A stretch of 32,000 nt of DNA. Source: Nitrosopumilus ureiphilus (GTDB lineage Archaea > Thermoproteota > Nitrososphaeria > Nitrososphaerales > Nitrosopumilaceae). The position numbers and the translations under genes are program-made. The notes under the pieces are model-generated. The model saw only the letters and a program-made list of their open reading frames with translations. It had not been told where the DNA came from and made no database searches. Location: NCBI RefSeq assembly GCF_013407185.1, contig NZ_CP026995.1:1009483-1041482 (forward strand). The letters run 5' to 3'. Below are positions 6,077 to 21,406 of this stretch, piece by piece. Each line of letters begins with the position of its first letter. Within the stretch, counting starts at the first letter, position 1.

Positions 6077-6129
6077 TCACTGATCATTCAAACACTTTAT
6101 GAATATCCCATTATCCATCTAGTCATATT

Positions 6130-7302
6130 ATGAAATATTTTGTAATTTTCTTGGTATTGATGATGTTTGTAGGCACAATTGCTCCTGTATTAGGTTTTGA
6201 GATTCATGATCTTGACTATGAAAATTCCCCATATCAAAACAAGAAGACTCCATCCCTTGGAAAACCAGTAGAACTATTCTATCAAGTTGTAAACCATGCT
6301 CCAAAAAATCAAAGCTATGATGTTATGATTTCAATTACAAATCTTGATGAGAAAAAACAGGTTCACTCTAAACAGTACCAATATGAAATTCCATCAGGTA
6401 AATTTATTGATATTATTTGGAAATTTACGCCAGAAACTTCTGGTCTTTATCTTGTAGATGTGACTGAGAATCATTACAAATACACAAAACATATTTTTGC
6501 AGTGCCTGAAAATAACGATTTTAAAAAAATTCACAAGACAAATCCTGTATTACTTGAGAACCAAAGCCCAAGACAACAATTCCGTATGGGTATTGATCCA
6601 AAAGAGATATTTTGTAAAGATGAATTATACCTTGCACTAAAATCCTCAGGACTTCCTGTTTGTGTGACCCTTGATACATTAATAGAATTTAGACAAAGGG
6701 ACATCATCATTCCTGATGTGATTGATTATGATCGAATTGGTTTTGCGGTTTCAGAAAATCAATTCATAAAAATGTTGGATGAAAACAATATCGAGTATGA
6801 TCGAGAAGAATTACTATTGGTCTCAGGATTTGCTCAACTTTCACTTCCGCCAACAAGTGGCTATTGCGGATATGTTCTAGATAAAACCCCCGAAGACTAT
6901 TGGTTTTCTAGCTCCTATCATTTTGACACTTTGTTGAGTTCCAATCTTTATGATGAAAATCCAAATCCATGTATCAGTGCGATGAGTTTTACATGTGAAT
7001 GTTCAATTCAAACACAACTAAAAGAAAATGAATTAACAGAATTATCATACTTTGATGAATCTCAAGAAAAGCATGTAGGGAATATGTTTCGGGATTATCT
7101 TAATGAAGGGGGAAAGATTGCAAATGCCCCAAACTCATTTATCATTGGAAAATACAACATGGATTTGGATTCTGACATCACTTTGTTTTGTGGACAATTT
7201 CAGGGAAAACAATACTGGCATTTTACAGGCTCAATTAATGACACAAAGATATCTGATTGGGGACGAATCGGATGGACGACCCAAACTATGTGCAATAAAT
7301 GA
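6130..7302 (+). CDS. Hypothetical secreted protein (Ig/CARDB-like N-terminal region plus Cys-pair module)
   Basis: 390-aa ORF. Signal peptide MKYFVIFLVLMMFVGTIAPVLG. Residues 146-191 (SPRQQFRMGIDPKEIFCKDELYLALKSSGLPVCVTLDTLIEFRQRD) match the module in the 8569 and 9805 proteins. Promoter and leader are duplicated at 24814-24873 (minus strand). Confidence 0.8.
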   Translation: MKYFVIFLVLMMFVGTIAPVLGFEIHDLDYENSPYQNKKTPSLGKPVELFYQVVNHAPKNQSYDVMISITNLDEKKQVHSKQYQYEIPSGKFIDIIWKFTPETSGLYLVDVTENHYKYTKHIFAVPENNDFKKIHKTNPVLLENQSPRQQFRMGIDPKEIFCKDELYLALKSSGLPVCVTLDTLIEFRQRDIIIPDVIDYDRIGFAVSENQFIKMLDENNIEYDREELLLVSGFAQLSLPPTSGYCGYVLDKTPEDYWFSSSYHFDTLLSSNLYDENPNPCISAMSFTCECSIQTQLKENELTELSYFDESQEKHVGNMFRDYLNEGGKIANAPNSFIIGKYNMDLDSDITLFCGQFQGKQYWHFTGSINDTKISDWGRIGWTTQTMCNK

Positions 7303-7358
7303 CAACCCAATATCTTTTACTTTTGATGAATCTGCAATTGTCAAACAACAATGAGAAA

Positions 7359-7574
7359 ATGAAAACTAGACATATCTTGATACCTATTGTAATTTTTTTT
7401 ATAATTGTTGGATTGATGACATATTTTGACTATTCAAAACTAACAACTCCGATTAACGGAATTCCGATAGAGGAATATTGTGATCAATTCCCAAATCCTT
7501 TTTGTACTGAAAGACCATTAGATTTGGACTTTTTTGAATATCTACGGTATAAAATATCCTCTTGGAATGGTTGA
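7359..7574 (+). CDS. Small membrane-anchored protein (MKT start)
   Basis: I prefer the ATG at 7359 (MKTRHILIPIVIFFIIVGLMTYF) over the track start at 7299. It is preceded by GAGAAA and carries the ATGAAAACTAGA cassette seen at five other gene starts. Confidence 0.6.
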   Translation: MKTRHILIPIVIFFIIVGLMTYFDYSKLTTPINGIPIEEYCDQFPNPFCTERPLDLDFFEYLRYKISSWNG

Positions 7575-7580
7575 TTTGAA

Positions 7581-8051
7581 ATGAAAACTAAACTTTTGGT
7601 AATTGTGGGGTTGATTGTATTTTTGATTCCTTTATCAGATGTATATGCTTCATGTGCCACATTTATTCCAGGAATAGACAACATCAAGGCTTATGATGAA
7701 GCATCTACTGTGTTTTTAGGAACCGTCATTAAAGCACATGAACAACAAAATTCAGATTCTGGCACAGCATTTTCAGAATATACTACATTTGATGTGCATT
7801 ATCTTTTCAAAGGTAGCCTAATTGAAGGCCAAGTGAGAACAAATCCTAGGAGTTCTACAGGATATGAGGGATTTGAAGAAGGTCAGACTTATTTTGTATA
7901 TGCATATGATCCTGCAAATGAAGTCTATGAATGCATAGCGCCAACACCTTTTCCATTTGCATTTCCAATTCTTATTCTACATTTCCCTTTTGTGTTGATA
8001 CCCATTGGAATCATTAGTGGTGTAGTGATTATTTGGAGAAAAAGAAAATGA
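7581..8051 (+). CDS. Hypothetical secreted protein with C-terminal TM anchor and basic tail
   Basis: 156 aa. Signal peptide MKTKLLVIVGLIVFLIPLSDVYA/SC. The mature N-terminal Cys followed by AYDEASTVFLGTV...FDVHYLFKG loosely resembles TIMP/netrin-like OB modules (weak call). The C-terminus PFPFAFPILILHFPFVLIPIGIISGVVIIWRKRK is a TM segment plus basic cluster. Confidence 0.75.
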   Translation: MKTKLLVIVGLIVFLIPLSDVYASCATFIPGIDNIKAYDEASTVFLGTVIKAHEQQNSDSGTAFSEYTTFDVHYLFKGSLIEGQVRTNPRSSTGYEGFEEGQTYFVYAYDPANEVYECIAPTPFPFAFPILILHFPFVLIPIGIISGVVIIWRKRK

Positions 8052-8572
8052 AAACCAACTTTATTCTGCTAACTACCACTATAGTATTTGCGTTACTTAC
8101 AGTTACATTTGGATATGGTGGACTATTATCAAATTATCAACACTTGACATGTTGGGATTCATGTGCTTGGGAAATACTTGAGGGATGTGATGAAATCTGT
8201 AAAGATGTCCCTGAAAAACGAACAGAATTAACAAGAGAAGAACAAAAAGAAAAAGGCCAAAAACTCAGAGAGATATACGATCCAATCCTTGAGAAATATA
8301 TTAGTTCAATAGGAATTATGGGAGGACCATTTCCAAGAGGCCACGGGTATTCATATCCTGTATCTCTAGAAGATAATCTTGATGCTAATTTTGATTATTC
8401 TGACGGATTTTTCATGCATTCTCAAATATTGGAGATAGTCTCTCCATTAAAACAAACAGATGATGCAGGAAAAATAACTATTGTAAAAGAAATGTTGTTT
8501 CCAGAGATGTATGTATTCTGGTTATTTGTCATAGCAATTGGGATAATTGTAGGATTCAAGATACGAAAATGA
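8048..8572 (+). CDS. Hypothetical secreted protein with C-terminal TM anchor and basic tail
   Basis: ATG at 8048 overlaps the upstream TGA (ATGA). MKTNFILLTTTIVFALLTVTFG leader, then a Cys-rich segment CWDSCAWEILEGCDEICK. C-terminus FPEMYVFWLFVIAIGIIVGFKIRK. Confidence 0.75.
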   Translation: MKTNFILLTTTIVFALLTVTFGYGGLLSNYQHLTCWDSCAWEILEGCDEICKDVPEKRTELTREEQKEKGQKLREIYDPILEKYISSIGIMGGPFPRGHGYSYPVSLEDNLDANFDYSDGFFMHSQILEIVSPLKQTDDAGKITIVKEMLFPEMYVFWLFVIAIGIIVGFKIRK

Positions 8573-9678
8573 AAACTAGAGTTTTGATTCCAATGCTTGC
8601 ATTATCCTTGTTGGCTTCTACAACTGCACTTTCATTTGGTGAATCATCTGATGAGTATGCATTGGGAATAGTAGAATGGCAGTATGACTGTCATCCACTT
8701 GTATTCAATACGGGTCTGATCAGAATCACTGATCCTGACATGAACATTGATGATGATGTGCCTGACAGATTTGACATTGAGGTTCTGTCTGATTATAATG
8801 AGAATAATATTCAAAAATATGTCAATCCCGTTTACACAGTAATTGAAACTGGTGATTCAACAGGGGTATTTGAGACGGTGGTATTTTGGGGAGATCCAGG
8901 TGACGAGGGAATCGGACATAGAGTGCCAATCTGGGATAACGTTACAGTTACTGCAAAGTATACTGATCATACACTGCCTTTATCTTACTTGGATTCAAGT
9001 TTGGACATTACAAGTTCTATAATTGTAAGAGATGTAAAACCAATAGAGAAAAAGAATTCTGACGGAATATCGGGTTTCTATTATGTATATGAGCCTTGCA
9101 CTGTGGAATTATTGGATATGAAAAACGACCCAAAATACACTGTAAACCACGATTTTATTTTTCTGCCCCCACTAAAACAAATCAAATCTGGAATTGCAGC
9201 AAAAGATGTGATTTGTAAGGAAGAATTACATCTTGTCAAGAAAAATTGGAAAGAAAATTGGGTTTGTGTCAAAAATTCAAGTATGGAGAAGCTAACATCA
9301 CGTAATTACATTTATCATAGTTTTGGCTCATCTGGAGTGGAAATTCCATCAGATGAATCAATACCCCGTATTCCATTGCTCGGATTGCCCGAAATTGATA
9401 ATGTGGAGATACAATCAATGATAGACTTGTTTGAAAACAGATACCACACATCTAAAATATCATTTGCTGGTTCAAACGTATTACTGAACGCTACACATAT
9501 CGGAGGCAAGACAGTGTCTCTTGTTATACAGTCCTTAGATGATAAAGTGACTGCCACATTGACTTGCAATCATATGGACTGGAGAAATCAAGAAGTAATC
9601 ACTGAAAACGTACTGGATTATCTAAAAAATGTGAATTGCTTTAATCCCTCAATGGAAGAAACAGGAAATGAAAACTAA
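8569..9678 (+). CDS. Hypothetical secreted protein (TDPDMN beta-module plus Cys-pair module)
   Basis: 369 aa with an ATGA overlap to the upstream gene. Signal peptide MKTRVLIPMLALSLLASTTALSFG. Residues about 33-135 are paralogous to the N-terminal domain of the 24019-24837 protein. Residues 200-247 form the PLKQIKSGI...C...L.L...VCV...KL..RNY module. Confidence 0.8.
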   Translation: MKTRVLIPMLALSLLASTTALSFGESSDEYALGIVEWQYDCHPLVFNTGLIRITDPDMNIDDDVPDRFDIEVLSDYNENNIQKYVNPVYTVIETGDSTGVFETVVFWGDPGDEGIGHRVPIWDNVTVTAKYTDHTLPLSYLDSSLDITSSIIVRDVKPIEKKNSDGISGFYYVYEPCTVELLDMKNDPKYTVNHDFIFLPPLKQIKSGIAAKDVICKEELHLVKKNWKENWVCVKNSSMEKLTSRNYIYHSFGSSGVEIPSDESIPRIPLLGLPEIDNVEIQSMIDLFENRYHTSKISFAGSNVLLNATHIGGKTVSLVIQSLDDKVTATLTCNHMDWRNQEVITENVLDYLKNVNCFNPSMEETGNEN

Positions 9679-9679
9679 A

Positions 9680-9753
9680 GTTCAAACCCACAAAAATCCA
9701 CACAGTTCAAACCTATTAGGTTCCAAACAATCTAGTTCAAACCTGTATGGATT
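9680..9753 (+). promoter_or_regulatory. Tandem array of three GTTCAAACC boxes (two degenerate, one full)
   Basis: GTTCAAACCcacaaaaatcc (9680), GTTCAAACCtattaggttc (9705) and GTTCAAACCTGTATGGATT (9735). These are followed by CTTTATG (9774) and the GTG start at 9805. Confidence 0.55.
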
Positions 9754-9804
9754 TGTTACTGATCATCAGAACACTTTATGTTCTTGCATGTATCCTGACC
9801 ATTT

Positions 9805-11304
9805 GTGAAGTGTTGTATTGCCATTTTGTTTTTGGTGCTTGTTTTTTCATTAACATACAATGCATATGCCATAGAATTCAAACCACTTGTAGCCAAAGAT
9901 GCAGATGGAGTGAATATATCTAATGGAATAGTTGGCAAACCAATTATTTTTCAACATACCGTTTCAAATGGTGAACTTAGCGCAGTAGATTTTGAAATCG
10001 TATTTTCCACATTCACGCCAGACGATAAAACACTAGATCAACAAATACAACGGATTCACTTGGGGCCAGGTGAAACAAAAATCATGCCCTATCAATTTGT
10101 TCCAATAAATGAAGGAAATTACATTACAAGTGTGTTTTCTGAGGAATATCTTGCCGCAGATTCAATATCCTTTCCAGCATTAGATGGTGCTAAAAATTAC
10201 AAAAAAGAAACAATCCATCTGTATTCTAATTCTTCTGATAGTGACTGCTCGTTTGCATGCACGAAGCCTTCAGAGAAAACTGTCAGTGTTGGAACCATTG
10301 TAGAATGGGTAAATGATTCTAATGATGATCATAGTATTTCAACTGGGACCTATCAAGAAGAAGATAATGGAATTGGTTGGAGTTATGATAAAAGATTTTC
10401 AGGAAGTTTTGGCCCAAATGAAACATTCTCATTTCTGTTCTTGGAGCCAGGAGAATACCAGTATTTTTTAGCAGAGCACAGATTGAGCACGACTCCTGTT
10501 GTAGGAACAATTCATGTGTCATCAGATATTTTTCCTGCAACCGATAAAACAATTGATATTTTGCAAGGAATAATGAACGACAAGAATTCCAAAATTCCAA
10601 TTACGTCACTTTCTGTAAATCCAAAAAATTCGATAATAACTGTGGGGATTGATGACCGAAAACATGCTTTTTTTACTATTGAACTTTACAAAAAAATACT
10701 TTACAAACAAGTTGGAAATGTGTATCTTAACATAATTCCAAATCCAACTCCAAGAATAGGGCAAATGTGTGATGTAAATGATGAAACACAAGTAAGAAAG
10801 GAACTTGAAAAAGACCCAGTGGTGCAAAAATTCCTAGAATTGTACACTTCATCTACTTTTGAGCATTTTAAAACATATGATGAGCCTGGTAATCCACGTA
10901 CTTATTCGGAATTTCGTTTTGGCTCATTTCTTCTCAGAGTTCTTGTTTTGTCATATGATGAAAGCGGGGTTTGTTATCCCGTATATGGATATTCTGTAAA
11001 TCATGATAATTCTTTATCTGAGATAAAACAAAATTTGTTTGAAAATTTCTATTCCAAGTCAGATAAAATACAAGAAGCGATAAACGCAGTAAAGAATCTT
11101 GCAAATCCCCTAAAACAACTCAAATCCGGAATTCCAATATATGAAATGCAATGCAATGAGGGATTACAACTCACATTAAAAAATTCTAATGACAATCCAG
11201 TCTGCATCAAAGAAACCAGTGTTAAAAAACTATCCATGCGCAATTATGTTTCTGATATAATAATAATCGGCTTAAAACACTCATTGCCGGAAATTGAAAA
11301 ATGA
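9805..11304 (+). CDS. Hypothetical secreted multidomain protein (Ig-like N-term, cupredoxin-like domain lacking the Cys ligand, Cys-pair module)
   Basis: 499 aa with a GTG start. Leader MKCCIAILFLVLVFSLTYNAYA. The segment VSVGTIVEWVNDSNDDHSIS...GEYQYFLAEHRLSTTPVVGTIHV follows the cupredoxin pattern. ANPLKQLKSGIPIYEMQCNEGLQLTLKNSNDNPVCIKETSVKKLSMRNYV is the Cys-pair module. Confidence 0.8.
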   Translation: MKCCIAILFLVLVFSLTYNAYAIEFKPLVAKDADGVNISNGIVGKPIIFQHTVSNGELSAVDFEIVFSTFTPDDKTLDQQIQRIHLGPGETKIMPYQFVPINEGNYITSVFSEEYLAADSISFPALDGAKNYKKETIHLYSNSSDSDCSFACTKPSEKTVSVGTIVEWVNDSNDDHSISTGTYQEEDNGIGWSYDKRFSGSFGPNETFSFLFLEPGEYQYFLAEHRLSTTPVVGTIHVSSDIFPATDKTIDILQGIMNDKNSKIPITSLSVNPKNSIITVGIDDRKHAFFTIELYKKILYKQVGNVYLNIIPNPTPRIGQMCDVNDETQVRKELEKDPVVQKFLELYTSSTFEHFKTYDEPGNPRTYSEFRFGSFLLRVLVLSYDESGVCYPVYGYSVNHDNSLSEIKQNLFENFYSKSDKIQEAINAVKNLANPLKQLKSGIPIYEMQCNEGLQLTLKNSNDNPVCIKETSVKKLSMRNYVSDIIIIGLKHSLPEIEK

Positions 11305-11783
11305 AAACTAGTTTTTTGATAATTATTGGAATTACTGTAATTCTAGCTGGCGGATTTATCTATGTGTCTTACATTCAATACACACATTACAAAACTTGGG
11401 AAAACAACGAACATTGGTATTATCATCCTGATGGGTATGAAGTGGAGTGCGAAATACGATTGTTTCAAACTCCAGGTCAGTGTGAAGCCGTAGATGAAAA
11501 TGGAATTATCGTAGACACAAAAACAGGATTGGGAAATTGGAATGGTGTAAAATGGTTAGGCGATCCAGATTATTGTAAAGATCAAGGCGGTAATTGGAAT
11601 GACACTGCAAGAGGTTGTTATGGATTATATGAGATGTGTGAAAAAGATGGAGGTATTCCTAGATTTTTAAAAAAGAGTTTGCCTTTTCCAGACATTGAAG
11701 AAAACAAACCCATTGAATATCTCATGGATTGTTATTATGGAATTTACCCAATTGAGGATAATTACTTAGGTGGACCTGAATAA
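11301..11783 (+). CDS. Hypothetical membrane-anchored Cys/Trp-rich protein (MKT start)
   Basis: 160 aa with an ATGA overlap to the upstream gene. MKTSFLIIIGITVILAGGFIYVSY anchor, then seven Cys and many Trp/Gly/Asn. Confidence 0.7.
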   Translation: MKTSFLIIIGITVILAGGFIYVSYIQYTHYKTWENNEHWYYHPDGYEVECEIRLFQTPGQCEAVDENGIIVDTKTGLGNWNGVKWLGDPDYCKDQGGNWNDTARGCYGLYEMCEKDGGIPRFLKKSLPFPDIEENKPIEYLMDCYYGIYPIEDNYLGGPE

Positions 11784-11853
11784 AAAATACAATAATGAAA
11801 TTTAATCATGGACTATCAGTTTTGTCCAAATCTGTTAAGGTTTGAACTAGGAA

Positions 11854-12198
11854 CTATTTTACTAAATTCTGAACCCTGGGAATCATGCTGACAAAATCCA
11901 TATGCTCGCATTGATCTTTGTGTTTGCTGCACGTCAATTTCCCGTTCTTATCTTTCACCTTTACAGTTGTTCCAATCTTGTAATCCATTAGAATGACAAA
12001 ATCTGACTCTACATCCATCAGTTCAAGATATGCCATAAAGCTAGAGTAGTGCTTTAGAAAATCCCTTACAGCATATGCTGCCATCTGTGATTTGTTAGTA
12101 AACCCTAGATTCCTTGACACATTTGACTCTGAGAACTTTTCAAGCTGGTCAATTAGCTCCTTTGGAAGCATTATTGACTTCCACTTTGTCTTATCCAT
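11854..12198 (-). CDS. Ribbon-helix-helix-like DNA-binding protein with C-terminal CxxHxxxCxH cluster
   Basis: 114 aa. N-terminus KWKSIMLPKELIDQLEKFSESN...SQMAAYAVRDFL fits a strand-helix-helix layout and is paralogous to the N-terminus of the divergent 12288 gene. The C-terminal part contains LTCSKHKDQCEH. Confidence 0.6.
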   Translation of the reverse strand: MDKTKWKSIMLPKELIDQLEKFSESNVSRNLGFTNKSQMAAYAVRDFLKHYSSFMAYLELMDVESDFVILMDYKIGTTVKVKDKNGKLTCSKHKDQCEHMDFVSMIPRVQNLVK

Positions 12199-12235
12199 AT
12201 GATATATGTATAATATGCTTTGTTTAATACTAATC

Positions 12236-12253
12236 TCTGATACATGTATCAGA
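12236..12253. promoter_or_regulatory. Perfect 18-bp palindrome TCTGATACATGTATCAGA (candidate operator)
   Basis: Self-complementary by hand check. It lies in the 89-bp divergent intergenic region, immediately upstream of AAATATTTAATAA (TATA-like, about 30 nt before the ATG at 12288). An extra half-site TCTGATA occurs at about 12272. Confidence 0.6.
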
Positions 12254-12287
12254 AATATTTAATAATGCTATCTGATAAATGTAACAT

Positions 12288-12608
12288 ATGAAAGTAATAT
12301 TGGGCAAGCAGAAAAAATGGCGTAACTGTATCATTTTGGGCTCAGTGCTCAACGAAGTGGAAAATTATTGCAAAGACAACGGCTGTGATTTTGCAAACCC
12401 AACACAGTTTATCGGATATGCTGTAAGAAAAGAGTTAGACTTTAGAAAGGGCATAAAATCATCAAAAATATTTACCGAAGATCAGATTAAAGAAAAGCTA
12501 GACAGATGGATTGATCAAGTAAAACAAGAAATGGAATTGGATAGCAGACTAGAAAAAGTTTTCAGAAACAGCAAAACACATGCAAAAACTCTGAGTGAAA
12601 ATATTTGA
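12288..12608 (+). CDS. Ribbon-helix-helix-like DNA-binding protein (paralog of 11854-12198)
   Basis: 106 aa. KWRNCIILGSVLNEVENYCKDNGCDFANPTQFIGYAVRKEL aligns with the N-terminus of the divergent neighbour. The C-terminal part is helical and charged. Confidence 0.6.
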   Translation: MKVILGKQKKWRNCIILGSVLNEVENYCKDNGCDFANPTQFIGYAVRKELDFRKGIKSSKIFTEDQIKEKLDRWIDQVKQEMELDSRLEKVFRNSKTHAKTLSENI

Positions 12609-12669
12609 TAGTAAATCCTTCTAAAAAATATTGGTTTGATAGTGTACACAAGTATCTGAATTTTGCAAA

Positions 12670-12825
12670 ATGAATGAACTGACATCATTGCAAAAACCAA
12701 ACCTTTTGGTGCGCTATCAATTCAATGATGATGAAGAAATCACACACGTTTGGTTAACCCAAAGTCAATATGAAAACTTTCGAATACTTCCAATTGTAAA
12801 ATTCTGCGAGATTGTAGAGAGTTAA
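12670..12825 (+). CDS. Possible small ORF (51 aa), below the track threshold
   Basis: Runs ATG 12670 to TAA 12823-12825: MNELTSLQKPNLLVRYQFNDDEEITHVWLTQSQYENFRILPIVKFCEIVES. Composition is protein-like, but there is no other support. Confidence 0.3.
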   Translation: MNELTSLQKPNLLVRYQFNDDEEITHVWLTQSQYENFRILPIVKFCEIVES

Positions 12826-13105
12826 TCAATCCGTATGGTTCTTAATTATTATTCACAACAAACAAGATCTGAATGTCTCTACAATATTTTCTGGTAAATT
12901 AAATGATAAATAAAACATAATGGTCATTCACATACACATTTGTAGTGAACTATGTTGTCATTATCCATCTTCATTTTAATATGACAGCAAGTGTCTTTCA
13001 CATTTGCATGCGCAGTATGGTAGTCACCTGTTGCCCACTTTTTTCTTTACTAGGCCACATTTTTTCCTTCAACTTCTTCAGGCAACAACGCCTCAGTTGC
13101 CTGCT

Positions 13106-13330
13106 CTAAAAATTCAAACTTGGCTGAAAAATCCCACTCTTCTTCTTTCTTTTTTTTCTGTGGCTGCCCACTATGATTATGATAACAGTTCCAAAAACTA
13201 CTATCACAATAATTATGATTGTGCCTATTATTACAATGACTACTAGTACGTTGTCTGATTGACTTTCGAGTGTCTCTTCTTGCTGTGCATAGAACAGAGA
13301 TGTAGTCCCTGCTATTAGCATGCTAAACAT
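13106..13330 (-). CDS. Small single-pass membrane protein with poly-basic tail
   Basis: 74 aa: a short hydrophobic N-terminus, an acidic stretch, a roughly 30-residue Ile/Val TM segment, then HRKKRKKK. The basic tail is encoded by an A8 run (13150-13157 on plus). See the finding on an alternative -1 frame. Confidence 0.5.
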   Translation of the reverse strand: MFSMLIAGTTSLFYAQQEETLESQSDNVLVVIVIIGTIIIIVIVVFGTVIIIIVGSHRKKRKKKSGIFQPSLNF

Positions 13331-13491
13331 GATATCTAAAAGTAGTCTGCTTATTGTGTTTGGGTGTGGATACTATGTTAAAAGTGTTATTCTATGATTC
13401 TCTTACTCTTTGTGAACTATGATCTGAATGATTTGAAAATGCTTTTGATATATGCGATATTTTTATTAATATGTGAAACTCATTAAATAAC

Positions 13492-13911
13492 ATGCTCATG
13501 CCTGAATCTCAAAGCATATGGTACAACGAGCTAGGCTCAAAGATGGCCCTTGATGCAGACGGTAAAGGGGGACTGACTGGCACGTATGTATCGGCAGTAG
13601 GTTCAGCTCAAGACGAGTATGCCTTGGTGGGTCGTTACAATCCTGCACAATCCCCGCCCACAGTAGGTTGGACGGTCCAATGGGTAAACTCGCACAAGAA
13701 GACTAATTCCGTGACGTCGTGGTCAGGGCAGCTGATGAATGTTGATGGTGTGCCTACAATTTTGACCACATGGCTATTGACACAGCAGACAAAACCTGAG
13801 AATGAATGGGAATCGACTATGGTTGATCAGGATGTGTTTACTCCAAACAAACCAACGGATGAGCAGATACGACTGGCAAAGATGAAACGTGGTTGCTCAA
13901 ATCCCGTCTGA
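13492..13911 (+). CDS. Avidin/streptavidin-family biotin-binding protein homologue, no signal peptide
   Basis: 139 aa, collinear by eye with core streptavidin: WYNELGS, GGLTGTYVSAVGSA..YALVGRY, VGWTVQW, SVTSWSGQ, TTWLLT, EWESTMVDQDVFT. An in-frame TGA at 13474-13476 rules out an N-terminal extension. A TATA-like TTTTTATTAATA lies about 30 nt upstream. Confidence 0.85.
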   Translation: MLMPESQSIWYNELGSKMALDADGKGGLTGTYVSAVGSAQDEYALVGRYNPAQSPPTVGWTVQWVNSHKKTNSVTSWSGQLMNVDGVPTILTTWLLTQQTKPENEWESTMVDQDVFTPNKPTDEQIRLAKMKRGCSNPV

Positions 13912-14004
13912 GTAATGTTGGGATTTTTGTTATAACCTTTGCATCAATTTGAATTGTAGTAATCGTTAAATGCTTGAAAATATTATCCTCATAATGTAAC
14001 ACTG

Positions 14005-14238
14005 ATGAACAATATCTTAAAAAGAATGGATCCTTTGATAATCCAAAATATTATGAAATTAATTTATGAAAACAGATCAATACGAAAGACTCCTCTTATG
14101 GAAAAGGCAAATATGAATTATTTACGTCTAAACGCATATTTAAAATGGTTAGAACTGATTGATTTTATAAAAATTGATGAGTCAAATATATTTTTGACCG
14201 AAAGCGGTTCAAAATTTATTTTCCGATGTTTGAAATAA
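14005..14238 (+). CDS. Small winged-helix DNA-binding protein (HTH_45-like)
   Basis: 77 aa. IIQNIMKLIYENRSIRKTPLMEKANMNYLRLNAYLKWLELIDFIKIDESNIFLTESGSKFI follows the pattern of small archaeal wHTH proteins (name, KT, ANLsY..l..YL..L...gli, y.LTekG..fl). Confidence 0.6.
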   Translation: MNNILKRMDPLIIQNIMKLIYENRSIRKTPLMEKANMNYLRLNAYLKWLELIDFIKIDESNIFLTESGSKFIFRCLK

Positions 14239-14330
14239 TGTTAATATGATATTATCATATGCTAATATTTAAGAATTATGAACTGCTGCAGTTCATGTTG
14301 TTTAATTATTATTAGTTTGTGAGAATCACA

Positions 14331-14774
14331 ATGACTACAAAAAATAATAGAAAACTGACAAAGATCATCCCCCTAGCGTTTGGGTTGGTAGCAATCATTG
14401 CTGGAATGTCTGTTGTTCCTTCATTAGGTCAACAAGAAGCTACTGCAGCAATCAATTGTCCATCAGGAGGCGGTGCATGTTACGGAACATCTGGTAACGA
14501 CACGATCTATGGAAGTGCAAACAGGGATATCATTCTTGCTGGTGCTGGTGATGACACGATCTTTGGCAATGGTGGAGATGATAACATCTATGGTGAAGCA
14601 GGAAAAGATACCATTAGTGGCGGTGCTGGAAATGATAATCTATATCATTCCGGTTCAGCATCAGGTTCAGATGGATTCGCCGATTCACTTGATGGTGATT
14701 CTGGTTCAGATACATGTCATTGGAACTCATCAGATGGTGATACAATGGCAAATTGTACCTCTATACCTTGGTGA
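14331..14774 (+). CDS. Secreted protein with hemolysin-type (RTX) calcium-binding nonapeptide repeats
   Basis: I prefer the ATG at 14331 (the track uses GTG 14319). Sec-type leader MTTKNNRKLTKIIPLAFGLVAIIAGMSVVPSLGQQEATA/A. Six consecutive GGxGxDxUx-like units follow: GTSGNDTIY, GSANRDIIL, AGAGDDTIF, GNGGDDNIY, GEAGKDTIS, GGAGNDNLY. Confidence 0.75.
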   Translation: MTTKNNRKLTKIIPLAFGLVAIIAGMSVVPSLGQQEATAAINCPSGGGACYGTSGNDTIYGSANRDIILAGAGDDTIFGNGGDDNIYGEAGKDTISGGAGNDNLYHSGSASGSDGFADSLDGDSGSDTCHWNSSDGDTMANCTSIPW

Positions 14775-14975
14775 TAATCACACCCCCTTTATTTTTTATG
14801 ATAAACTAATTTTAATATATTAAAAATATGATAATATATTATTCTCATATTATGATAAATCAAAAATCAAAATTAGTTCGATTAGAAAGAAAAAATTTAT
14901 TTATTAAAACAATTAAGAATATTCCTGGACAATAAAATACATCAACTCTCATCAAAAAGAAATTTTGGAATTATT

Positions 14976-15467
14976 TTGATAATGATTGTTATTTTATGTT
15001 TTGTTTTTTTATTTTCTCTTCAACTTCTTTTCAATCCTTTTTACATTATTACGAGTGGAAGTATGTTGCCAACACTTGTTCAAGAAGATATGGTTATTAC
15101 ATCTGATGAATCTTTTTTTGATCTAAAAGTAGGTGACATAATTGTTTTTAAGAGCAATTACAATAATTTAGATCGTACATATGTACACAGAATAGTAGAA
15201 ATCATGGATGATGATGAAAGGTATGTTAAAACCAAAGGGGATTATAATCCTTCTTCACTAGAAGGTTTGGATTATCCCATAAAAGAAAGTAATTATGTTG
15301 GTAAAGTAATTATTGTACTCCCAAAAATCGGCATGTTTATTAAAATTTTTTCCCCTCCAATAAATTACTATATCATGATTATTTCTTCTAGTTTACTACT
15401 GTTTTTTTTCCGAAAAAATATATTTTATTGTTTGTATAAATCAAAAGAATTTTCTGAGAATACCTGA
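14976..15467 (+). CDS. Signal peptidase I, archaeal/ER (Sec11/SipW) type
   Basis: 163 aa with an N-terminal TM, then the SGSMLPTL Ser box, YVHRIV His box and TKGDYN box, and a C-terminal TM. Start is TTG 14976 or ATG 14982. Confidence 0.8.
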   Translation: MIMIVILCFVFLFSLQLLFNPFYIITSGSMLPTLVQEDMVITSDESFFDLKVGDIIVFKSNYNNLDRTYVHRIVEIMDDDERYVKTKGDYNPSSLEGLDYPIKESNYVGKVIIVLPKIGMFIKIFSPPINYYIMIISSSLLLFFFRKNIFYCLYKSKEFSENT

Positions 15468-15498
15468 TGGAATAACCTTTTAGGATTAACGCAACATT

Positions 15499-15517
15499 GT
15501 TCAAACCTGTATGGATT
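15499..15517 (+). promoter_or_regulatory. Upstream box GTTCAAACCTGTATGGATT (copy 4)
   Basis: Same core as the other copies. It lies 43 nt upstream of CGTTATAAA (15542), which is 34 nt upstream of the ATG at 15576. Confidence 0.5.
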
Positions 15518-15660
15518 TGGTAAAATTCAGATTTCATCAAACGTTATAAACAAAATATTATCAGTATCAACACAAATGCACAATACATCCACACTTGTTT
15601 TTAGGATATCATAATATCTGAAAGTGAATCAATTGGATTATAAAATAACATTTTCAGTCA

Positions 15661-16083
15661 TTGCAGCAATCATCCACTATTGATGGAATAGTGATCTATC
15701 CTGATGAACCAAAAAATATCAAGCATACTTTTCGCAGTCACAATCCAGTTTTAGTCATCTTTGATGTTAATCCACAAAAAATACCTTACAGTGTAATGAT
15801 TACAAATTATGAGTGGTCCGAGGAAGTTCTAAACGTAGTGGAATCAGATTCTGCACAACATAGAATAAAACATGTCAGATACGGTACATATGACTTTGAC
15901 TTTGCAAATCTGGGTGATGAGGAACTGTATCTAACAATAGATATCAAAGATGCAAAATATGATGAAATAAACAACTTTCATAACTCCATCTCAATTATGA
16001 TCTACATTTACTATTCTGTATTTTTTGGAGGGATAATTATTAGTAGTGTTGGTGCTGTCATTTGGAGGATGACAAAACGATAA
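15661..16083 (+). CDS. Hypothetical protein with C-terminal TM anchor; 5' end possibly disrupted
   Basis: 140-aa ORF that can only start at TTG 15661 and has no leader. The C-terminus ISIMIYIYYSVFFGGIIISSVGAVIWRMTKR is a TM segment plus basic tail. The promoter-proximal ATG (15576) is in another frame and hits TAA after 12 codons. Confidence 0.5.
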   Translation: MQQSSTIDGIVIYPDEPKNIKHTFRSHNPVLVIFDVNPQKIPYSVMITNYEWSEEVLNVVESDSAQHRIKHVRYGTYDFDFANLGDEELYLTIDIKDAKYDEINNFHNSISIMIYIYYSVFFGGIIISSVGAVIWRMTKR

Positions 16084-16292
16084 CTGAATTATTCAAATAT
16101 GTCCTGTCATTTACCGAGGAAATTAGGCTGAAAGAAGATTACGTAAAAGATCATACTTGAAAAACAAACATTACAAACAAAAATGAGTTGGAAAATTCAG
16201 TTTTTCCTTAATAACACGTTTGTATTAACTTGTTGCAAATGATTAGAAGCGTTTATGAGTATCATAACTTGAATATTTTTTAGATAAATACA

Positions 16293-17231
16293 ATGGCAGA
16301 ATTAGATCTTGGCATACTTATCGTACAAATAATAGTTGGATTGATCATTATTGGAATTCTTCTTTCCGGAATACGAATAATCAGACCTACTCATAGGGCA
16401 GCAGTTGAGACACTTGGAAAATATACTAGGTTTCAAAATTCGGGAATAACATTCATTGTACCGTTTTTTCAAAAAATTTACTCCATAAACATCACAGAAC
16501 AACTAGTTGATGTCATGCGTCAGGAGGTAATCACAAAGGACAATCTAAACTGTACAGTTGATGCCCAAGTTTACTTTAAGGTTGGTGCAAGTGAGCGTGA
16601 ACTCAAAAGTGCACTATACCAAGTAAACAACTATGATGTTCAAATTGTTCAGCTTGCTAGAACTACCCTGAGAAATGTAATTGGAGACAACATGTTCAAA
16701 GATGTAAACTCTCAACGTGGAAAACTCAACAATGAAGTGTTTGAAACAATGGCAGTTGAAACAAAGGACTGGGGAATCACAATTGTAAGAGTTGAATTAA
16801 AAGAGATAGAGCCACCTGATGATGTTCAAGAAACCATGAATATGGTCATCAAGGCTGAAAATGACAAACAGTCAGCCATTGATTTTGCAAATGCTCGTGA
16901 AACTAAAGCTGATGGTGAGCGAAGAGCCAGCATCAAAGAAGCAGAAGGTATACGTCAATCTTTGATATTGGAGGCAGAAGGCAAATCCCAAGCAATTGAA
17001 AGAGTGGCAGAAGCCCGAGCAAAAGAAATTCAACTTGTTAATGAAGCAGCTGAAAAATATTTTGTTGGAAATGCCAAGGAGCTAAAGAAATTAGAGGTAA
17101 CCCAAGCAAGTCTTGAAACAAATTCCAAAATCGTATTGACTGAAAAAGGTATTTCTCCAACAATAGTTCTCAATGAAACAACTGATACTATTATTCCAAC
17201 AAAGACAAAACAAGAACCTAAATCCGAATAA
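16293..17231 (+). CDS. SPFH/band-7 (stomatin/prohibitin-like) membrane protein
   Basis: 312 aa. N-terminal TM, then the typical SPFH core (ITKDNLNCTVDAQVYFKV...IVQLARTTLRNVIG...WGITIVRVELKEIEPPDDVQETM) and an Ala/Glu-rich coiled tail. Confidence 0.9.
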   Translation: MAELDLGILIVQIIVGLIIIGILLSGIRIIRPTHRAAVETLGKYTRFQNSGITFIVPFFQKIYSINITEQLVDVMRQEVITKDNLNCTVDAQVYFKVGASERELKSALYQVNNYDVQIVQLARTTLRNVIGDNMFKDVNSQRGKLNNEVFETMAVETKDWGITIVRVELKEIEPPDDVQETMNMVIKAENDKQSAIDFANARETKADGERRASIKEAEGIRQSLILEAEGKSQAIERVAEARAKEIQLVNEAAEKYFVGNAKELKKLEVTQASLETNSKIVLTEKGISPTIVLNETTDTIIPTKTKQEPKSE

Positions 17232-17327
17232 ATTTATTTTGAATTTTATTTTCAGAAAATGAAACTCCGACTTTGTTATTTTTTGTTCTGTTATAACTTC
17301 TAATACCGAGTATGAAAATCAAAAACA

Positions 17328-19364
17328 ATGGTAAAACCAAATACTGGTCTTGGAATTGCATGTTTTTTAATACTGGGCATTTCATTTTTAATTCTATTTG
17401 CATACTTGACATTTTTTGACATCTATGCAACACAAACTTCAAGTGTTGAGGGTAATTTTGACGGAGTTGATTTTACCAAAAAGCGAATTTTTGTATTGGG
17501 TGCAAGTTCAGTTGACGTTCTAAATTTTACTAGCATTGATGAATATTTGGCTAATCATGGCAAGAAAGATTACGAAGTGTACAATCTTACCGAAGATGGA
17601 GACAGACCTTCAGAAAGAATTGCACAGATTGACAAGATAATTGACATGGAGCCTGATTTGGTTTTATACGGACTGGGAATGAGGGAATTTGGATATGATG
17701 ATTTTTCCCCAGGCCTAACAAAATGTTTGCCTCTGAATTATGGTGCATTTTGGGAGATGCGTAAAGAAATACCAGACAAAGAAAAAATTACAGATATCCC
17801 TCAGGATTCAAATGTTTTTGAGCCTCTGGCAATCATAAAAAATGAGATCAAAAAGCAAACTGTGCCAGGATTCCCAGATTTTGTAGAGCCCAAATTTGCG
17901 ACTGTTTCATTTTTGAATAACATTTTGTATCAAAAAGAAGTTCAGACAGAGTCATTTCTTGATAAAAATTATACGGAATTAAAAAAACAGGGAGGGGTAA
18001 AAGAGATTGTTCCAAACAGCAAGTTAAAAGAAAAATTGAAAAACATGGTTTTTGGATACTGCGAAGAAATGAACAAGGATGAATTGGCACATCTTGGGAT
18101 AATTCTAGACAGATTACATGAAAAAAATATCGACGTGGCAGTTTTTGTTGCCCCGTACAGCGGGCCATATCTAGATGTATTGTCAGATCTTTCAATCCAA
18201 CATTATTTTGTAGGATTACACAAGATTACAAACAATGCTAATGTGAAACTCTATTCATTTTTGGACAGATACAAAGAACTGGACATATTTCATGATGCCA
18301 CTCATGTAGCAGCTAATGCAAAATCATCTGTGTTTAGCAAAGATTTTGCATTTTTTACACTAAACATCATAGACAGCAGAGAGAGAAACTACGAATCACA
18401 GAATCTATTAGAATTTCAATACGGAAAATCATCAAGTGAAAATTTGAACAGTAAACAAATACGTAAACTGCATTCATTTGAAAATCTCAATCTTTCAGGT
18501 ATTGTTCTAGCAAATGAAGATTTGTCCGGAAAGAAAATTGCAAATACAGACTTGACTCAAGCAAATCTGGAATCTGTTGATTTTTCACGCATCATTATGA
18601 GTGATTCAGTTTTGAATGGAGCCAACATGTATTATGCAAATCTCTCTAATGCAGAAATTACACACACATCCATGAACGGTGCAAATTTGTTGTTTGCAGA
18701 TGTAACAAATGCAATATTGTCCGATATTGATTTGAGGTACTCTCTGGTTATGGGGGTGAATTTCTCAAATCTGAACATGACGAACATTGATTTTTCAGGA
18801 TCAAATATGTTGAAATCAAATTTTAGAGATTCCCACATGACAAATGTGGATTTTTCAAGTGTAGACTTATCTCAGACCGATTTTAGCGGTGCTCAAAGGG
18901 ATAATAAAACGAGATTCTCAGGCACAAAACTGATCGAATCGAATCTCAGTAATTTTGACATGTCATATTTGGATCTGTCCGGAGTTGTTCTGTCTGGGGC
19001 AAATCTTACAAATACCTCATTTAGAGGGTCAGAATTTATTTTCTCTGATCTGTCCGGAGTTGATCTTTCTACATCAGATATGAATGGGGTGACACTTTTA
19101 GCATCTGATTTGAGTTTTACAAATATTCCAAATGCACAATTCTCACAGATTAATGCAAAGCATGCAAATTTTGCCAATGCAAATTTGATTGGTGCAGACT
19201 TGTCTTTTGCAGATTTTCTTGGCGCACGGTTTGTAAATACTAATTTAACTGGGGCAAATCTTACAGGAACCCAACTAAAGTTTGCCAATTTTACAGGAGC
19301 CATTCTGGATAATGCTAATCTGCGGTGTCTCGATCATACCATATGCAATAGTTTGAGGGAGTAA
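17328..19364 (+). CDS. Membrane-anchored fusion: SGNH/DltD/AlgJ-like domain (tentative) plus long pentapeptide-repeat domain
   Basis: 678 aa. N-terminal TM GLGIACFLILGISFLILFAYLTFF. The middle region has IFVLGASS (block-I-like Ser) and FHDATHV (DxxH-like). The last roughly 290 aa are uninterrupted A(D/N)LxX pentapeptides (ANLSNAEITHTSMNGANLLFADVTNAILSDIDL...). The stop is 1 nt before the MBOAT start. Confidence 0.8.
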   Translation: MVKPNTGLGIACFLILGISFLILFAYLTFFDIYATQTSSVEGNFDGVDFTKKRIFVLGASSVDVLNFTSIDEYLANHGKKDYEVYNLTEDGDRPSERIAQIDKIIDMEPDLVLYGLGMREFGYDDFSPGLTKCLPLNYGAFWEMRKEIPDKEKITDIPQDSNVFEPLAIIKNEIKKQTVPGFPDFVEPKFATVSFLNNILYQKEVQTESFLDKNYTELKKQGGVKEIVPNSKLKEKLKNMVFGYCEEMNKDELAHLGIILDRLHEKNIDVAVFVAPYSGPYLDVLSDLSIQHYFVGLHKITNNANVKLYSFLDRYKELDIFHDATHVAANAKSSVFSKDFAFFTLNIIDSRERNYESQNLLEFQYGKSSSENLNSKQIRKLHSFENLNLSGIVLANEDLSGKKIANTDLTQANLESVDFSRIIMSDSVLNGANMYYANLSNAEITHTSMNGANLLFADVTNAILSDIDLRYSLVMGVNFSNLNMTNIDFSGSNMLKSNFRDSHMTNVDFSSVDLSQTDFSGAQRDNKTRFSGTKLIESNLSNFDMSYLDLSGVVLSGANLTNTSFRGSEFIFSDLSGVDLSTSDMNGVTLLASDLSFTNIPNAQFSQINAKHANFANANLIGADLSFADFLGARFVNTNLTGANLTGTQLKFANFTGAILDNANLRCLDHTICNSLRE

Positions 19365-19365
19365 A

Positions 19366-20868
19366 ATGCTTTTCAACACAATTGATTTTATTGTATTTTT
19401 CATCCTAGTTGTAACTACAATAGTCATTGTTAAAAATCGCAATTACCAACACTTGTTTTTATTAATTGCAAGTTATTTCTTTTTTTATTATTCATCAAAC
19501 TATTTGATCAGCCTGTTGATTTTTTCTACAGTTCTTGATTTCTATGTTGCAAAAAAAATACATCAGCAAAAAAATAACCCTGCTCAGAAAAAGATTCTGC
19601 TTATAACAAGTTTGGTTGGGAATTTAGGGTTGCTAGGATTTTTCAAGTATGCCGATTTTGCAATTGCGCAATTCAACTTTTTTGGAAGTTACTTTAATCT
19701 GGCTGATGAAATACCATTTCTGTACATTGCGTTGCCCATTGGAATTTCATTTTACACATTTCAAACAATTAGTTATACCGTAGATGTTTATCGAGAAAAA
19801 CTAGAACCATCAAAATCTCTAAAGGAGTTTGCACTTTTTGTAGCATTTTTCCCACAGCTAGTTGCAGGCCCAATTTTACGTGCAAGTGACTTTCTACCTC
19901 AACTAAGAGAGAAAATCAAGAGTTTGGAAACTGTTTCATCATCTACCATAAAGTTAGGCAAAAAAATACAACTGTCTAAAATCTCAATAAATAGCAGCAA
20001 CCTCAAACTGGGAATCACGATAATGGGTTTTGGTTTTGTAAAAAAGATGTTTTTTGCAGACAATATTGCGCCTCTGGTAGATGAAATATTTTCAAATCCT
20101 ATGGGATTAGAGTCATTTTCCATCATTTTGGGAGCAATTGGCTTTGGAATTCAGATTTATGCTGATTTTTCAGGGTACTCTGATATTGCAATAGGTATAG
20201 CTACAGTTTTGGGTTTTAAGATTCCAATCAACTTTAATCGTCCTTATTTTGCCACATCTCCTAGAGATTTCTGGAAGAGATGGCACATTTCTTTGTCAAC
20301 ATGGTTGAGGGATTATCTGTACATACCACTTGGTGGTAGCAAAAAATCATCTGTTGGGACATATGGCAATTTGTTTGCAGTGATGATTTTAGGTGGAATC
20401 TGGCATGGCGCTGCATGGAATTTTGTAGTATGGGGACTTCTTCACGGAGCGTATCTAGCAGTAACTCGATTCTTTGGAAAGAAATTTCCTCAATTTACTT
20501 TGCATCCATTTTTTAGTACCAGAATTGGTAAAATTATTTCAATTTTAACGGTACAGTACTTTGTATTTTTAGCATGGATTCCATTCAGAGTTCAAAATTT
20601 TGATTTTATGTTGTACTCTATGCAAAAATATGTCCTAATAGATTTTGCAACAGAGAAAACGCTGGAACTAATATCCTCAAACAAGATTTCAGTTTTCTTG
20701 ATTGTTGTTTTTATCATAACCTGCATTATATCATACAAGAAAAACATCCATCAAATTGCATCGAATTTGTCTCTGAAAAAATGGACATTAGTCATGACAT
20801 TGTTTGCAGTAATAATTTTGGTTTTGTATGACGGTTCCCCGCAAGATTTTATTTATTTTAAATTTTAA
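19366..20868 (+). CDS. Membrane-bound O-acyltransferase (MBOAT; AlgI/DltB/PatA-like)
   Basis: 500-aa polytopic protein with the family signature SPRDFWKRWHISLSTWLRDYLYIPLGGS and a downstream WHGAAWNFVVWGLLHG. Confidence 0.92.
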   Translation: MLFNTIDFIVFFILVVTTIVIVKNRNYQHLFLLIASYFFFYYSSNYLISLLIFSTVLDFYVAKKIHQQKNNPAQKKILLITSLVGNLGLLGFFKYADFAIAQFNFFGSYFNLADEIPFLYIALPIGISFYTFQTISYTVDVYREKLEPSKSLKEFALFVAFFPQLVAGPILRASDFLPQLREKIKSLETVSSSTIKLGKKIQLSKISINSSNLKLGITIMGFGFVKKMFFADNIAPLVDEIFSNPMGLESFSIILGAIGFGIQIYADFSGYSDIAIGIATVLGFKIPINFNRPYFATSPRDFWKRWHISLSTWLRDYLYIPLGGSKKSSVGTYGNLFAVMILGGIWHGAAWNFVVWGLLHGAYLAVTRFFGKKFPQFTLHPFFSTRIGKIISILTVQYFVFLAWIPFRVQNFDFMLYSMQKYVLIDFATEKTLELISSNKISVFLIVVFIITCIISYKKNIHQIASNLSLKKWTLVMTLFAVIILVLYDGSPQDFIYFKF

Positions 20869-20955
20869 AATAATTCCAAAATGACGTATTTTATGTAATT
20901 AAAATTAGAGTTTAAACTATAGTTCAATGTATATTTTGATGTAGTTGATTTTGTA

Positions 20956-21406
20956 GTGTATGAATTTTTTCTAGCAGACAAAATGATTGAAAAGTATGGT
21001 GGAACAAGAGAAGACTATTTTATGAAACTAAATGAGTACTATGAGGAAAGGCTGACCAATGCCAAAAAACAAGGGTTTTCAAATGAATTTAGTGCACCTA
21101 GCATAATCTATCACGGAAATGTGTATAGTGGAATCCTTTTTGGACATCTGATGAACATCCTCTTTTCATGTCTGTGCATTTGATGCCAGAATAGATGATA
21201 CTGATCATGCAGCATTTTATTGTGAAAAATGTGAACGTGAAGTGCGCATAGTAAATTTGACATTTTACAAAGAATCCAAAAATGAACATAAACTCAAACT
21301 AATCCACACTTTACGATTTGAATTATTCTGCGAAGGATGTGGGACATCGGATACAAAGAAGATCTATGTCAATAATTCGTTGTTGGATGGTATTAGTTGG
21401 GATTAG
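20956..21406 (+). pseudogene. Disrupted gene: N-terminal ORF (frame 1) plus CxxC...CxxC zinc-ribbon segment (frame 2) lacking a usable start
   Basis: Frame 1 is open 20956-21183. Frame 2 is open 21152-21406 and encodes ...FYCEKCEREVRIV...FCEGCGTSDTKKIYV... with no ATG/GTG/TTG before the first CxxC. The only upstream frame-2 ATG (21119) is separated from it by TGA 21149-21151. Confidence 0.4.

Follow-up and report, generated by a model that had tools for sequence, protein, structure and literature searches.

A leaderless avidin-family gene with a conserved C-terminal tail motif in the archaeon Nitrosopumilus ureiphilus

Few proteins are used as heavily in biotechnology as avidins, whose natural roles are poorly understood. 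Here we analyze an avidin-family gene of Nitrosopumilus ureiphilus, which lies in a stretch of 32,000 nucleotides from contig NZ_CP026995.1 (positions 1,009,483 to 1,041,482, hereafter "the window") and had been noticed in a reading of the DNA letters made without database searches (hereafter "the sequence-only reading").

An avidin-family gene on an archaeal contig

The gene is preceded by a TATA-like element, followed by a short T run and a winged-helix gene, and placed within a variable segment of mostly orphan genes (Table 1). Its translated open reading frame (ORF) is an exact match to the NCBI protein C5F50_05920 from the 2.17-Mb contig of N. ureiphilus, where it is labelled 'hypothetical protein', and this identity establishes the archaeal host that the sequence-only reading had proposed. 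The Pfam Avidin profile (PF01382) gave a clear full-length match (profile positions 3–116 of 116, E = 1.6e-29, 103 bits vs. a cut-off of 24), and a phmmer search of the Protein Data Bank (PDB) retrieved streptavidin (E ~1e-29) and tamavidin 2 (E = 1.8e-28). Together with AlphaFold2 (AF2) modeling and Foldseek comparison (see below), these searches all agree on an avidin/streptavidin homologue. Every computable hallmark of the avidin family, and of its leaderless, tamavidin-like subgroup, is present, and the ORF product is an archaeal addition to a known family and not a new kind of system.

Our literature search found no paper describing an archaeal avidin, in line with the earlier statement that no characterized archaeal member was known, and none linking avidin to Thaumarchaeota, Nitrosopumilus or N. 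ureiphilus; the sole systematic survey of prokaryotic avidins that we found covers bacteria only (PMC8033661).

Table 1. Features of the avidin locus, in window coordinates.
Feature	Position	Strand	Basis
Variable accessory segment, ~13.7 kb, from purL to the Band_7 gene, holding the avidin gene and mostly orphan genes	2540-16240		Comparison with relative L059
TATA-like AT-rich element TTTTTATTAATA, ~21-32 nt upstream of the ATG	13460-13471	+	Sequence read
In-frame TGA, which rules out an N-terminal extension or signal peptide	13474-13476	+	Sequence read
Avidin-family gene, 139 aa plus TGA stop at 13909-13911	13492-13911	+	ORF read, Pfam, PDB phmmer, NCBI match
Eight-stranded beta-barrel, residues 8-117, bearing the biotin contacts	13513-13842	+	AF2, Foldseek, streptavidin alignment
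Amphipathic C-terminal helix, residues 123-132 (DEQIRLAKMK), equivalent of the 'C-Lid'	13858-13887	+	AF2, alignment, Foldseek
Ser136-Asn137-Pro138, conserved S-[H/N]-P motif, putative intrinsic pocket ligand	13897-13905	+	Tail-motif count
T5 run 13 nt past the stop, possible archaeal oligo-T terminator	13924-13928	+	Sequence read
Winged-helix gene (HTH_45), 77 aa	14005-14238	+	Pfam, E = 2.5e-10

Fold and biotin contacts of a leaderless avidin

The AF2 monomer, built with 26 homologues as input (mean predicted local distance difference test, pLDDT, 86.7; predicted template modeling score 0.81), contains the eight strands of an avidin barrel, whose absence would have spoken against the family assignment, followed by a helix at residues 123–132. 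Foldseek superimposed this model on streptavidin structures with template modeling scores of 0.84–0.88 and a root-mean-square deviation of 1.5–1.6 Å over 118 columns, and 137 columns could be aligned with full-length streptavidin (PDB 2bc3). Residues were mapped from the HMMER/phmmer alignment, in which the chain index equals mature streptavidin numbering. Eleven of the twelve listed biotin-contact residues are identical between streptavidin and the window protein (N23=N12, S27=S16, Y43=Y32, S45=S34, W79=W64, S88=S73, T90=T75, W92=W77, W108=W94, W120=W106 and D128=D114), the sole change being N49 to S38, so that each residue named in the sequence-only reading was recovered by alignment. Four further residues are retained (L25=L14, V47=V36, G48=G37 and L110=L96). 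The Asn49 column itself varies across the family alignment and holds Asp in tamavidin 2 (sequence checked against PDB 2zsc). The window protein would thus, judging from its retained contacts, be expected to bind free biotin very tightly. Since W106, the equivalent of the cross-subunit Trp120 of streptavidin, is kept (it is invariant in the family alignment), the usual avidin oligomer would presumably form, the AF2 models themselves being monomers.

At the other end of the protein, Trp10 has just nine residues ahead of it (MLMPESQSI), which include no hydrophobic stretch, and no upstream extension is possible because an in-frame TGA stands 18 nt upstream of the ATG. Both observations agree with the earlier view that signal peptide and extension are absent. 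The same arrangement recurs in nearly all of 58 avidin loci, where the start codon lies 6–10 codons ahead of the WYNELGS motif, often with an in-frame stop just upstream, and signal peptides were confined to three actinomycete copies (two from Amycolatopsis, one from Streptomyces). Among single-domain relatives drawn from the best 150 representatives plus earlier matches, 66 of 91 are leaderless, and these include bacterial as well as archaeal proteins. The leaderless state is therefore usual in this clade, and the window protein is the archaeal counterpart of the tamavidin type rather than an isolated oddity. The archaeal membership suggested by the sequence-only reading stands, with the qualification that the gene belongs to a mostly leaderless, patchily distributed clade whose members are spread over many bacterial phyla and three or more archaeal lineages. 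Because it carries no export signal, the protein is expected to stay in the cytoplasm.

Some genomes hold two leaderless copies, namely a Chitinophagaceae metagenome-assembled genome (MAG; L002 6198-6740 and 8001-8420, 1.3 kb apart), Streptomyces humicola (L020, L021) and a Flavobacteriales MAG (L011, L013).

A conserved S-[H/N]-P tail

The family keeps ~22 further residues past the barrel, comprising a Pro-x-x-Glu-x-Ile-x-x-Ala helix and then Ser-His-Pro (alignment consensus 'SHP'). In the window protein the helix is aligned by phmmer with SIDAAKKAG of streptavidin, and the HMMER alignment likewise pairs the two tails (EQIRLAKMKRGCSN with SIDAAKKAGVNN). When tail positions were counted from the last barrel Phe, [HN]P occurred at +20 to +23 in 92 of 168 relatives (67 at +21 and 23 at +22), vs. 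4.8 expected from shuffled tails. Ser precedes the dipeptide in 76 of these 92 carriers, and its first residue is His in 82 and Asn in 10. The window motif S136-N137-P138 occupies +20 to +22 (N137-P138 being +21/+22) and is followed by Val139 only; by the same anchor, N152-P153 of streptavidin falls at +22/+23. Some natural tails in the family read SHPQ (e.g., P0010 and P0027).

Tails of this kind have structural precedents. In full-length streptavidin, N150-G151-N152-P153 enters the biotin site of the subunit to which it belongs, in competition with biotinylated macromolecules, and the consensus SHP also opens the pocket-binding HPQ core of Strep-tag II, WSHPQFEK (PMC3344845). Streptavidin C1 has a 'C-Lid' helix and then an ANPP peptide inside the pocket (PMC7924230). 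In bradavidin an unrelated tail occupies the biotin site, and its authors speculate that such tails capture free biotin while sparing the biotin carboxyl carrier protein (PMC3344845). By analogy with these proteins, the tail of the window protein may dock into its own pocket. The SHP motif is not mentioned in the bacteria-only avidin survey, and no link between HPQ and tamavidin was found in the literature. The conserved tail, a feature that the sequence-only reading overlooked, suggests a possible built-in alternative to the tight transcriptional control proposed there.

Distribution and phylogeny of the family

An indexed protein search returned 25 homologues besides the window protein itself, at 78–40% identity and almost all unannotated. 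The closest (P0002-P0007, 58–78% identity) are on contigs of 30–44% G+C (GC), some of which also bear archaeal markers, such as ribosomal protein S17e and HTH_45 on L054 or a NitrOD1 domain on L139; on L052, a homologue of the window gene at 15661-16083 lies ~5 kb from the avidin gene. When one genome from each GTDB species was scanned, 51 avidin loci were identified. Bacterial loci came from Bacteroidota, Acidobacteriota, Nitrospirota, Actinomycetota, Chloroflexota, Myxococcota, Proteobacteria, a Parcubacterium and others, and archaeal loci from two Nitrososphaeraceae and five Ca. Methanoperedens, with no other avidin-bearing Nitrosopumilaceae among the GTDB species representatives. The avidin family is small, with 828 members at E≤1e-3 and 336 at E≤1e-10 in a phmmer search over 1.84 billion cluster representatives.

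In a neighbor-joining tree (75 sequences, 138 columns, 100 bootstraps), the Nitrosopumilus-type clade has a support of 93 and joins P0006, P0007 and a Rhodothermales sequence at a support of 70. The Nitrososphaeraceae and Methanoperedens avidins are placed elsewhere among bacteria, so that the three archaeal groups do not come together. The Rhodothermales avidin (L001 7998-8402, from a MAG, on a 4.5-Mb contig) shares 53% identity with the window protein and stands next to the archaeal P0007; because it nests in the Nitrosopumilus-type grouping, it points to a transfer between a bacterium and an archaeon, in either direction.

The ratio of non-synonymous to synonymous substitution rates (dN/dS) is 0.097 between the window gene and its nearest relative, at a dS of 1.85; dS could be estimated for two more pairs, both with a ratio of 0.14. 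Purifying selection thus acts on the avidin gene, and the archaeal clade is not a young one.

Genomic position and composition

Backbone genes of the window comprise purL (366-2531), purF (25043-26476) and purC (27516-28340), beyond which conserved genes extend to ~31.2 kb. Between purL and purF, most genes are orphans, the exceptions with Pfam matches being an S26 signal peptidase and Band_7, pentapeptide-repeat, MBOAT and DUF6036 nucleotidyltransferase genes. A close relative, represented by a 48-kb metagenomic contig (L059) whose shared genes are 81–90% identical at the amino-acid level, is collinear with the window at 7-2437, 16240-17219, 25046-26795 and 27478-31156. Its purL-Band_7 gap measures ~660 bp and its Band_7-purF gap ~150 bp, and the 13.7-kb segment that holds the avidin gene is thus missing from this relative. 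Since other relatives carry different cargo beside Band_7, this looks like a variable hotspot, or genomic island, in Nitrosopumilus. A second block of mostly orphan genes spans 17230-25040 (7.8 kb), and both blocks interrupt a collinear purS-purL-Band_7-purF-purC backbone. No hallmark of a mobile element was found, with regard to tRNA genes, meaningful flanking direct or inverted repeats, or an integrase among the Pfam matches.

The sequence-only reading had described the gene as visibly richer in G+C than its flanks. Its GC is 0.488 and its G+C at third codon positions (GC3) 0.486, vs. a mean GC3 of 0.267 (sd 0.066) for the other 32 window ORFs (z = 3.3), and its codon-adaptation value (0.52) is the lowest in the window, which together mark it as compositionally foreign. 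The GC-rich patch is limited to the avidin ORF. A structured RNA overlapping this patch was considered and rejected, Rfam having no match anywhere in the window. Relatives' avidin genes are all 0.07–0.10 above the GC of their own contigs, and the GC3 of the closest of them (0.29–0.43) tracks that of the host contigs. Part of the raw GC excess is thus intrinsic to the protein, whereas the GC3 excess is peculiar to the N. ureiphilus copy and fits a comparatively recent arrival in this lineage from a higher-GC donor. Taken with the absence of the segment from L059, the patchy spread of the family and the scattering of the archaeal groups in the tree, this makes the horizontal acquisition proposed earlier probable; instead of being ubiquitous and vertically inherited, the gene is rare, patchy and accessory.

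Two other window ORFs are GC3 outliers, a DUF6036 nucleotidyltransferase gene at 22623-23132 (+; 0.50) and an ORF at 11854-12198 (-; 0.45) whose small product has no Pfam match and by eye resembles a ribbon-helix-helix DNA-binding protein. Their position, in both cases inside the variable blocks, suggests the independent arrival of several foreign genes.

Flanking genes and regulation

The spacing of TTTTTATTAATA would fit an archaeal promoter that gives a leaderless or very short-leader mRNA, and the T5 run past the stop would separate the avidin gene from the winged helix-turn-helix (wHTH) gene. A sigma-70 promoter and terminator scan carries no information for archaeal DNA. The regulation by the neighboring wHTH gene that the sequence-only reading had raised found no support: no wHTH homologue stands beside avidin in ten related archaeal loci, so that we do not consider this gene a dedicated regulator or conserved partner, and it has an apparent AT-rich upstream region of its own. 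Among the window neighbors, PADLOC gave only weak WH_III-A matches, to the wHTH protein (E>1e-3).

To survey neighbors across the family, ORFs within ±6 kb of avidin were clustered for the 58 loci. Only AAA ATPases (7 of 58 loci) and glycosyltransferase family 4 (GT4) genes (6 of 58) recur, and neither occurs in the window. The AAA+ ATPase lies 0.5–3 kb from avidin in Ca. Methanoperedens (L030 8932-10038, minus strand; L035; L040) and in Nitrospirota (L006 2746-4413, L016 8195-9859); it combines the Pfam domains PRS2_N, AAA and AAA_lid_PRS2_C and is IetA-like by PADLOC (E down to 1e-41), and the gene after it in Methanoperedens encodes 346 aa that match nothing in Pfam or PADLOC. This neighbor may reflect a functional link (unfolding or release) or a defense island. 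The GT4 gene lies shortly past the avidin stop, ~450–700 bp from the start motif (L007 8686-9831, L014 8558-9700, L017 8441-10363, L038 and L043), in five loci from Acidobacteriota, a Thermoanaerobaculia MAG and a Cellvibrionaceae MAG, and its 'GT4-conflict' Pfam match is weak (28–36 bits vs. a cut-off of 26). On L016 a GT4 homologue lies ~4.9 kb from avidin on the opposite strand.

Upstream of the avidin P0002, by ~0.6 kb, L055 (2965-3444; also L056-L058) encodes a 160-aa protein with an ArsR-type helix-turn-helix (HTH_5, E = 5e-6) and a short Archaeal_AmoA Pfam match (34.7 bits vs. a cut-off of 25.6, profile positions 119–157), an odd pairing.

Elsewhere in the window, two genes downstream of avidin, the ORF at 14319-14774 (+) encodes a small protein (151 aa) that is hydrophobic in an N-terminal segment and bears calcium-binding nonapeptide repeats of the RTX type (HemolysinCabind, E = 6e-16), and its GC of 0.43 is above the window average. 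The ORF at 30157-30552 (-) encodes 131 aa made almost entirely of Lys/Ala/Arg/Pro repeats (AAPKRKAAAKRR...; G+C at second codon positions 0.68), i.e., a highly basic, histone-H1-like low-complexity protein that is partly conserved in L059.

Proposed role and alternative explanations

The archaeon fixes carbon through a 3-hydroxypropionate/4-hydroxybutyrate (HP/HB) cycle that depends on acetyl/propionyl-CoA carboxylase. Avidin inhibits the carboxylations of this cycle (PMC6138646). Where CO2 fixation needs an avidin-inhibited biotin enzyme, the presence of a cytoplasmic avidin poses a testable question, namely how self-poisoning is avoided, and the S-H/N-P tail suggests an answer.

On balance, we think that the gene probably encodes a functional, leaderless avidin of the streptavidin/tamavidin type that acts as a tail-gated cytoplasmic binder of free biotin, with biotin capture as its favored role. 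In the unliganded state, S136-N137-P138 would fold back into the pocket of its own chain, since the homologous N150-G151-N152-P153 of full-length streptavidin does so and HPQ peptides bind at the same place. Free biotin would then displace this lid, whereas a bulky biotinylated carrier protein, e.g., AccB of acetyl/propionyl-CoA carboxylase, would be hindered by it, and the biotin-dependent carboxylase of the cell would therefore be spared. The pay-off, the least certain step, is modeled on proposals for tamavidin and egg avidin: biotin might be hoarded in the cell, or withheld from competitors and grazers upon lysis. Extending this to the family, it is tempting to speculate, although we hold the idea quite tentatively, that the S-H/N-P tail is a natural 'Strep-tag' which auto-plugs the pocket, letting widespread cytoplasmic avidins coexist with biotinylated carboxylases while they capture free biotin, and that in this ammonia oxidizer it forms part of a horizontally acquired device for hoarding or withholding a vitamin.

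Several observations weigh against this interpretation. A lid of ~30 µM affinity would only modestly weaken a femtomolar binding of biotin, so the toxicity is not obviously solved. The last 4–7 residues have pLDDT <50 in both AF2 models (the window protein and the Nitrososphaeraceae homologue P0019), so that these models do not support a docked tail, and the window motif has Asn instead of the majority His, with a single residue after Pro. The enrichment of the tail motif in leaderless proteins (33 of 51, vs. 5 of 19 N-extended ones; Fisher p = 0.006) speaks for the interpretation but is uncorrected for phylogeny. Release by lysis or vesicles would be compatible with the missing signal peptide. 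Neither a biotin-related gene nor a universal partner was found beside avidin in the 58 loci, and genomic context thus gives no pointer to function. Finally, the tree does not allow a donor to be named, because deep nodes have supports <50 and synonymous sites are saturated.

The lid might instead serve only to keep the avidin inert before its release. On such a defensive 'public good' explanation, which we consider possible but rather unlikely, the protein is stockpiled and, once freed by lysis, grazing, viral burst or vesicles, strips biotin from competitors or predators, after the model of mushroom tamavidin and egg avidin. Tamavidin 2, the closest characterized leaderless relative (47% identity), is regarded as antifungal, and bacterial avidins have been read as defense proteins (PMC8033661). 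The variable island also holds secreted or surface-type proteins, including the RTX-repeat protein and the S26 signal peptidase, and avidins of some other lineages lie near IetA-like AAA ATPases or GT4 'conflict' glycosyltransferases. However, the window protein lacks a secretion signal, no gene for lysis or export was found nearby, avidin has no match in PADLOC or PHROGs, the AAA and GT4 neighbors are limited to just 7 and 6 of 58 loci and absent from the window, and dilution in seawater would weaken an extracellular effect unless the cells live in sediment or biofilm. Less likely again, in our view, is an intracellular sink or store that traps self-made or imported biotin, stops its leakage and drives uptake, the vitamin being recovered on protein turnover. 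The leaderless state and purifying selection would suit it, as would the occurrence of avidin in Ca. Methanoperedens, whose order is reported to lack the genes for making biotin and to depend on BioY for its uptake (PMC6138646), and in which three loci have the AAA+ ATPase 0.5–1.5 kb from avidin. Yet near-irreversible binding would make retrieval costly, bioY, birA or bio genes are linked to avidin in none of the 58 loci, and the rarity of the gene in Nitrosopumilaceae indicates that it is not needed for a normal biotin economy.

Sequestration of a biotin-like toxin, a hypothesis of our own in which avidin confers resistance to antimetabolites from neighboring bacteria, seems very improbable: leaderless copies do occur, sometimes two per genome, in Streptomyces, Kitasatospora and Amycolatopsis, and the gene is accessory and horizontally mobile, but the conserved biotin contacts give no sign of an altered specificity and no biosynthetic or resistance genes were identified beside avidin. 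We judge it just as hard to credit that the gene is a silent passenger, recently imported and without a role in N. ureiphilus, or an assembly contaminant. The foreign GC3, the lowest codon adaptation in the window and the lack of expression data for the gene in the literature searched would be in keeping with this explanation. Against it speak the embedding of the gene, with native flanks, in a 2.17-Mb archaeal contig, the homologues on several other low-GC contigs with archaeal genes (S17e, NitrOD1), the dN/dS of ~0.1, the intact reading frame with all its functional residues and the plausible archaeal TATA element upstream. As for withholding, sink or store, and toxin sequestration, the present evidence does not discriminate among them, the toxin option being the less likely.

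If the tail-gated capture of biotin is the correct interpretation, a vitamin-withholding or vitamin-hoarding trait may have been added to abundant marine nitrifiers, the generality of which is limited by the rarity of avidin in Nitrosopumilaceae. The protein, which is small, leaderless, of mesophilic marine archaeal origin and possibly equipped with a peptide lid of its own, might also find practical use. The fold and the ligand are unsurprising; the points of interest are the cellular paradox and the Strep-tag-like lid.

Comparison with known avidins and tags

Strep-tag and Strep-tag II (AWRHPQFGG and WSHPQFEK) offer a parallel to the tail motif itself, the family consensus S-H-P-x matching the SHP of Strep-tag II. 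These tags are artificial products of in vitro selection, the window protein carries Asn at the position of His, and the natural tails are compared with them by sequence only. Bradavidin (source of the Brad-tag) and hoefavidin share a principle with the proposed window tail, in that the biotin site receives an intrinsic ligand made of C-terminal residues, but they belong to distant clades, are secreted, and have a tail of unrelated sequence (SEKLSNTK) that reaches a neighboring subunit.

Streptavidin C1 (Streptomyces cinnamonensis, PDB 7cpz/7cq0), among the top Foldseek and phmmer matches, resembles the window protein in having a 'C-Lid' helix followed by an extension, which in its case (VTSANPPAS) binds the biotin site of the same monomer; it differs in being secreted, of actinomycete origin and longer in its tail. 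Full-length streptavidin (Streptomyces avidinii, PDB 2bc3) shares 46% core identity with the window protein, all biotin contacts bar N49, the homologous C-terminal helix and an Asn-Pro at +22/+23 (vs. +21/+22), and its residues N150-P153 occupy its own pocket. Streptavidin, however, has a signal peptide, is secreted, and has its tail trimmed by proteolysis to the 'core' form, whereas the window protein is leaderless and ends one residue after Pro.

Tamavidin 2 (Pleurotus cornucopiae, PDB 2zsc) is fungal, its tail ends in HCRAPRLK without S-[H/N]-P at +21, and its equivalent of Asn49 is Asp rather than Ser. Like the window protein, it is leaderless, has a WYNEL(G/N)S start, is of nearly the same length (141 vs. 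139 aa) and 47% identical, and has the same barrel with a C-terminal extension that includes a helix (TEQQIAHAQL), its tail containing Cys-x-x-Pro.

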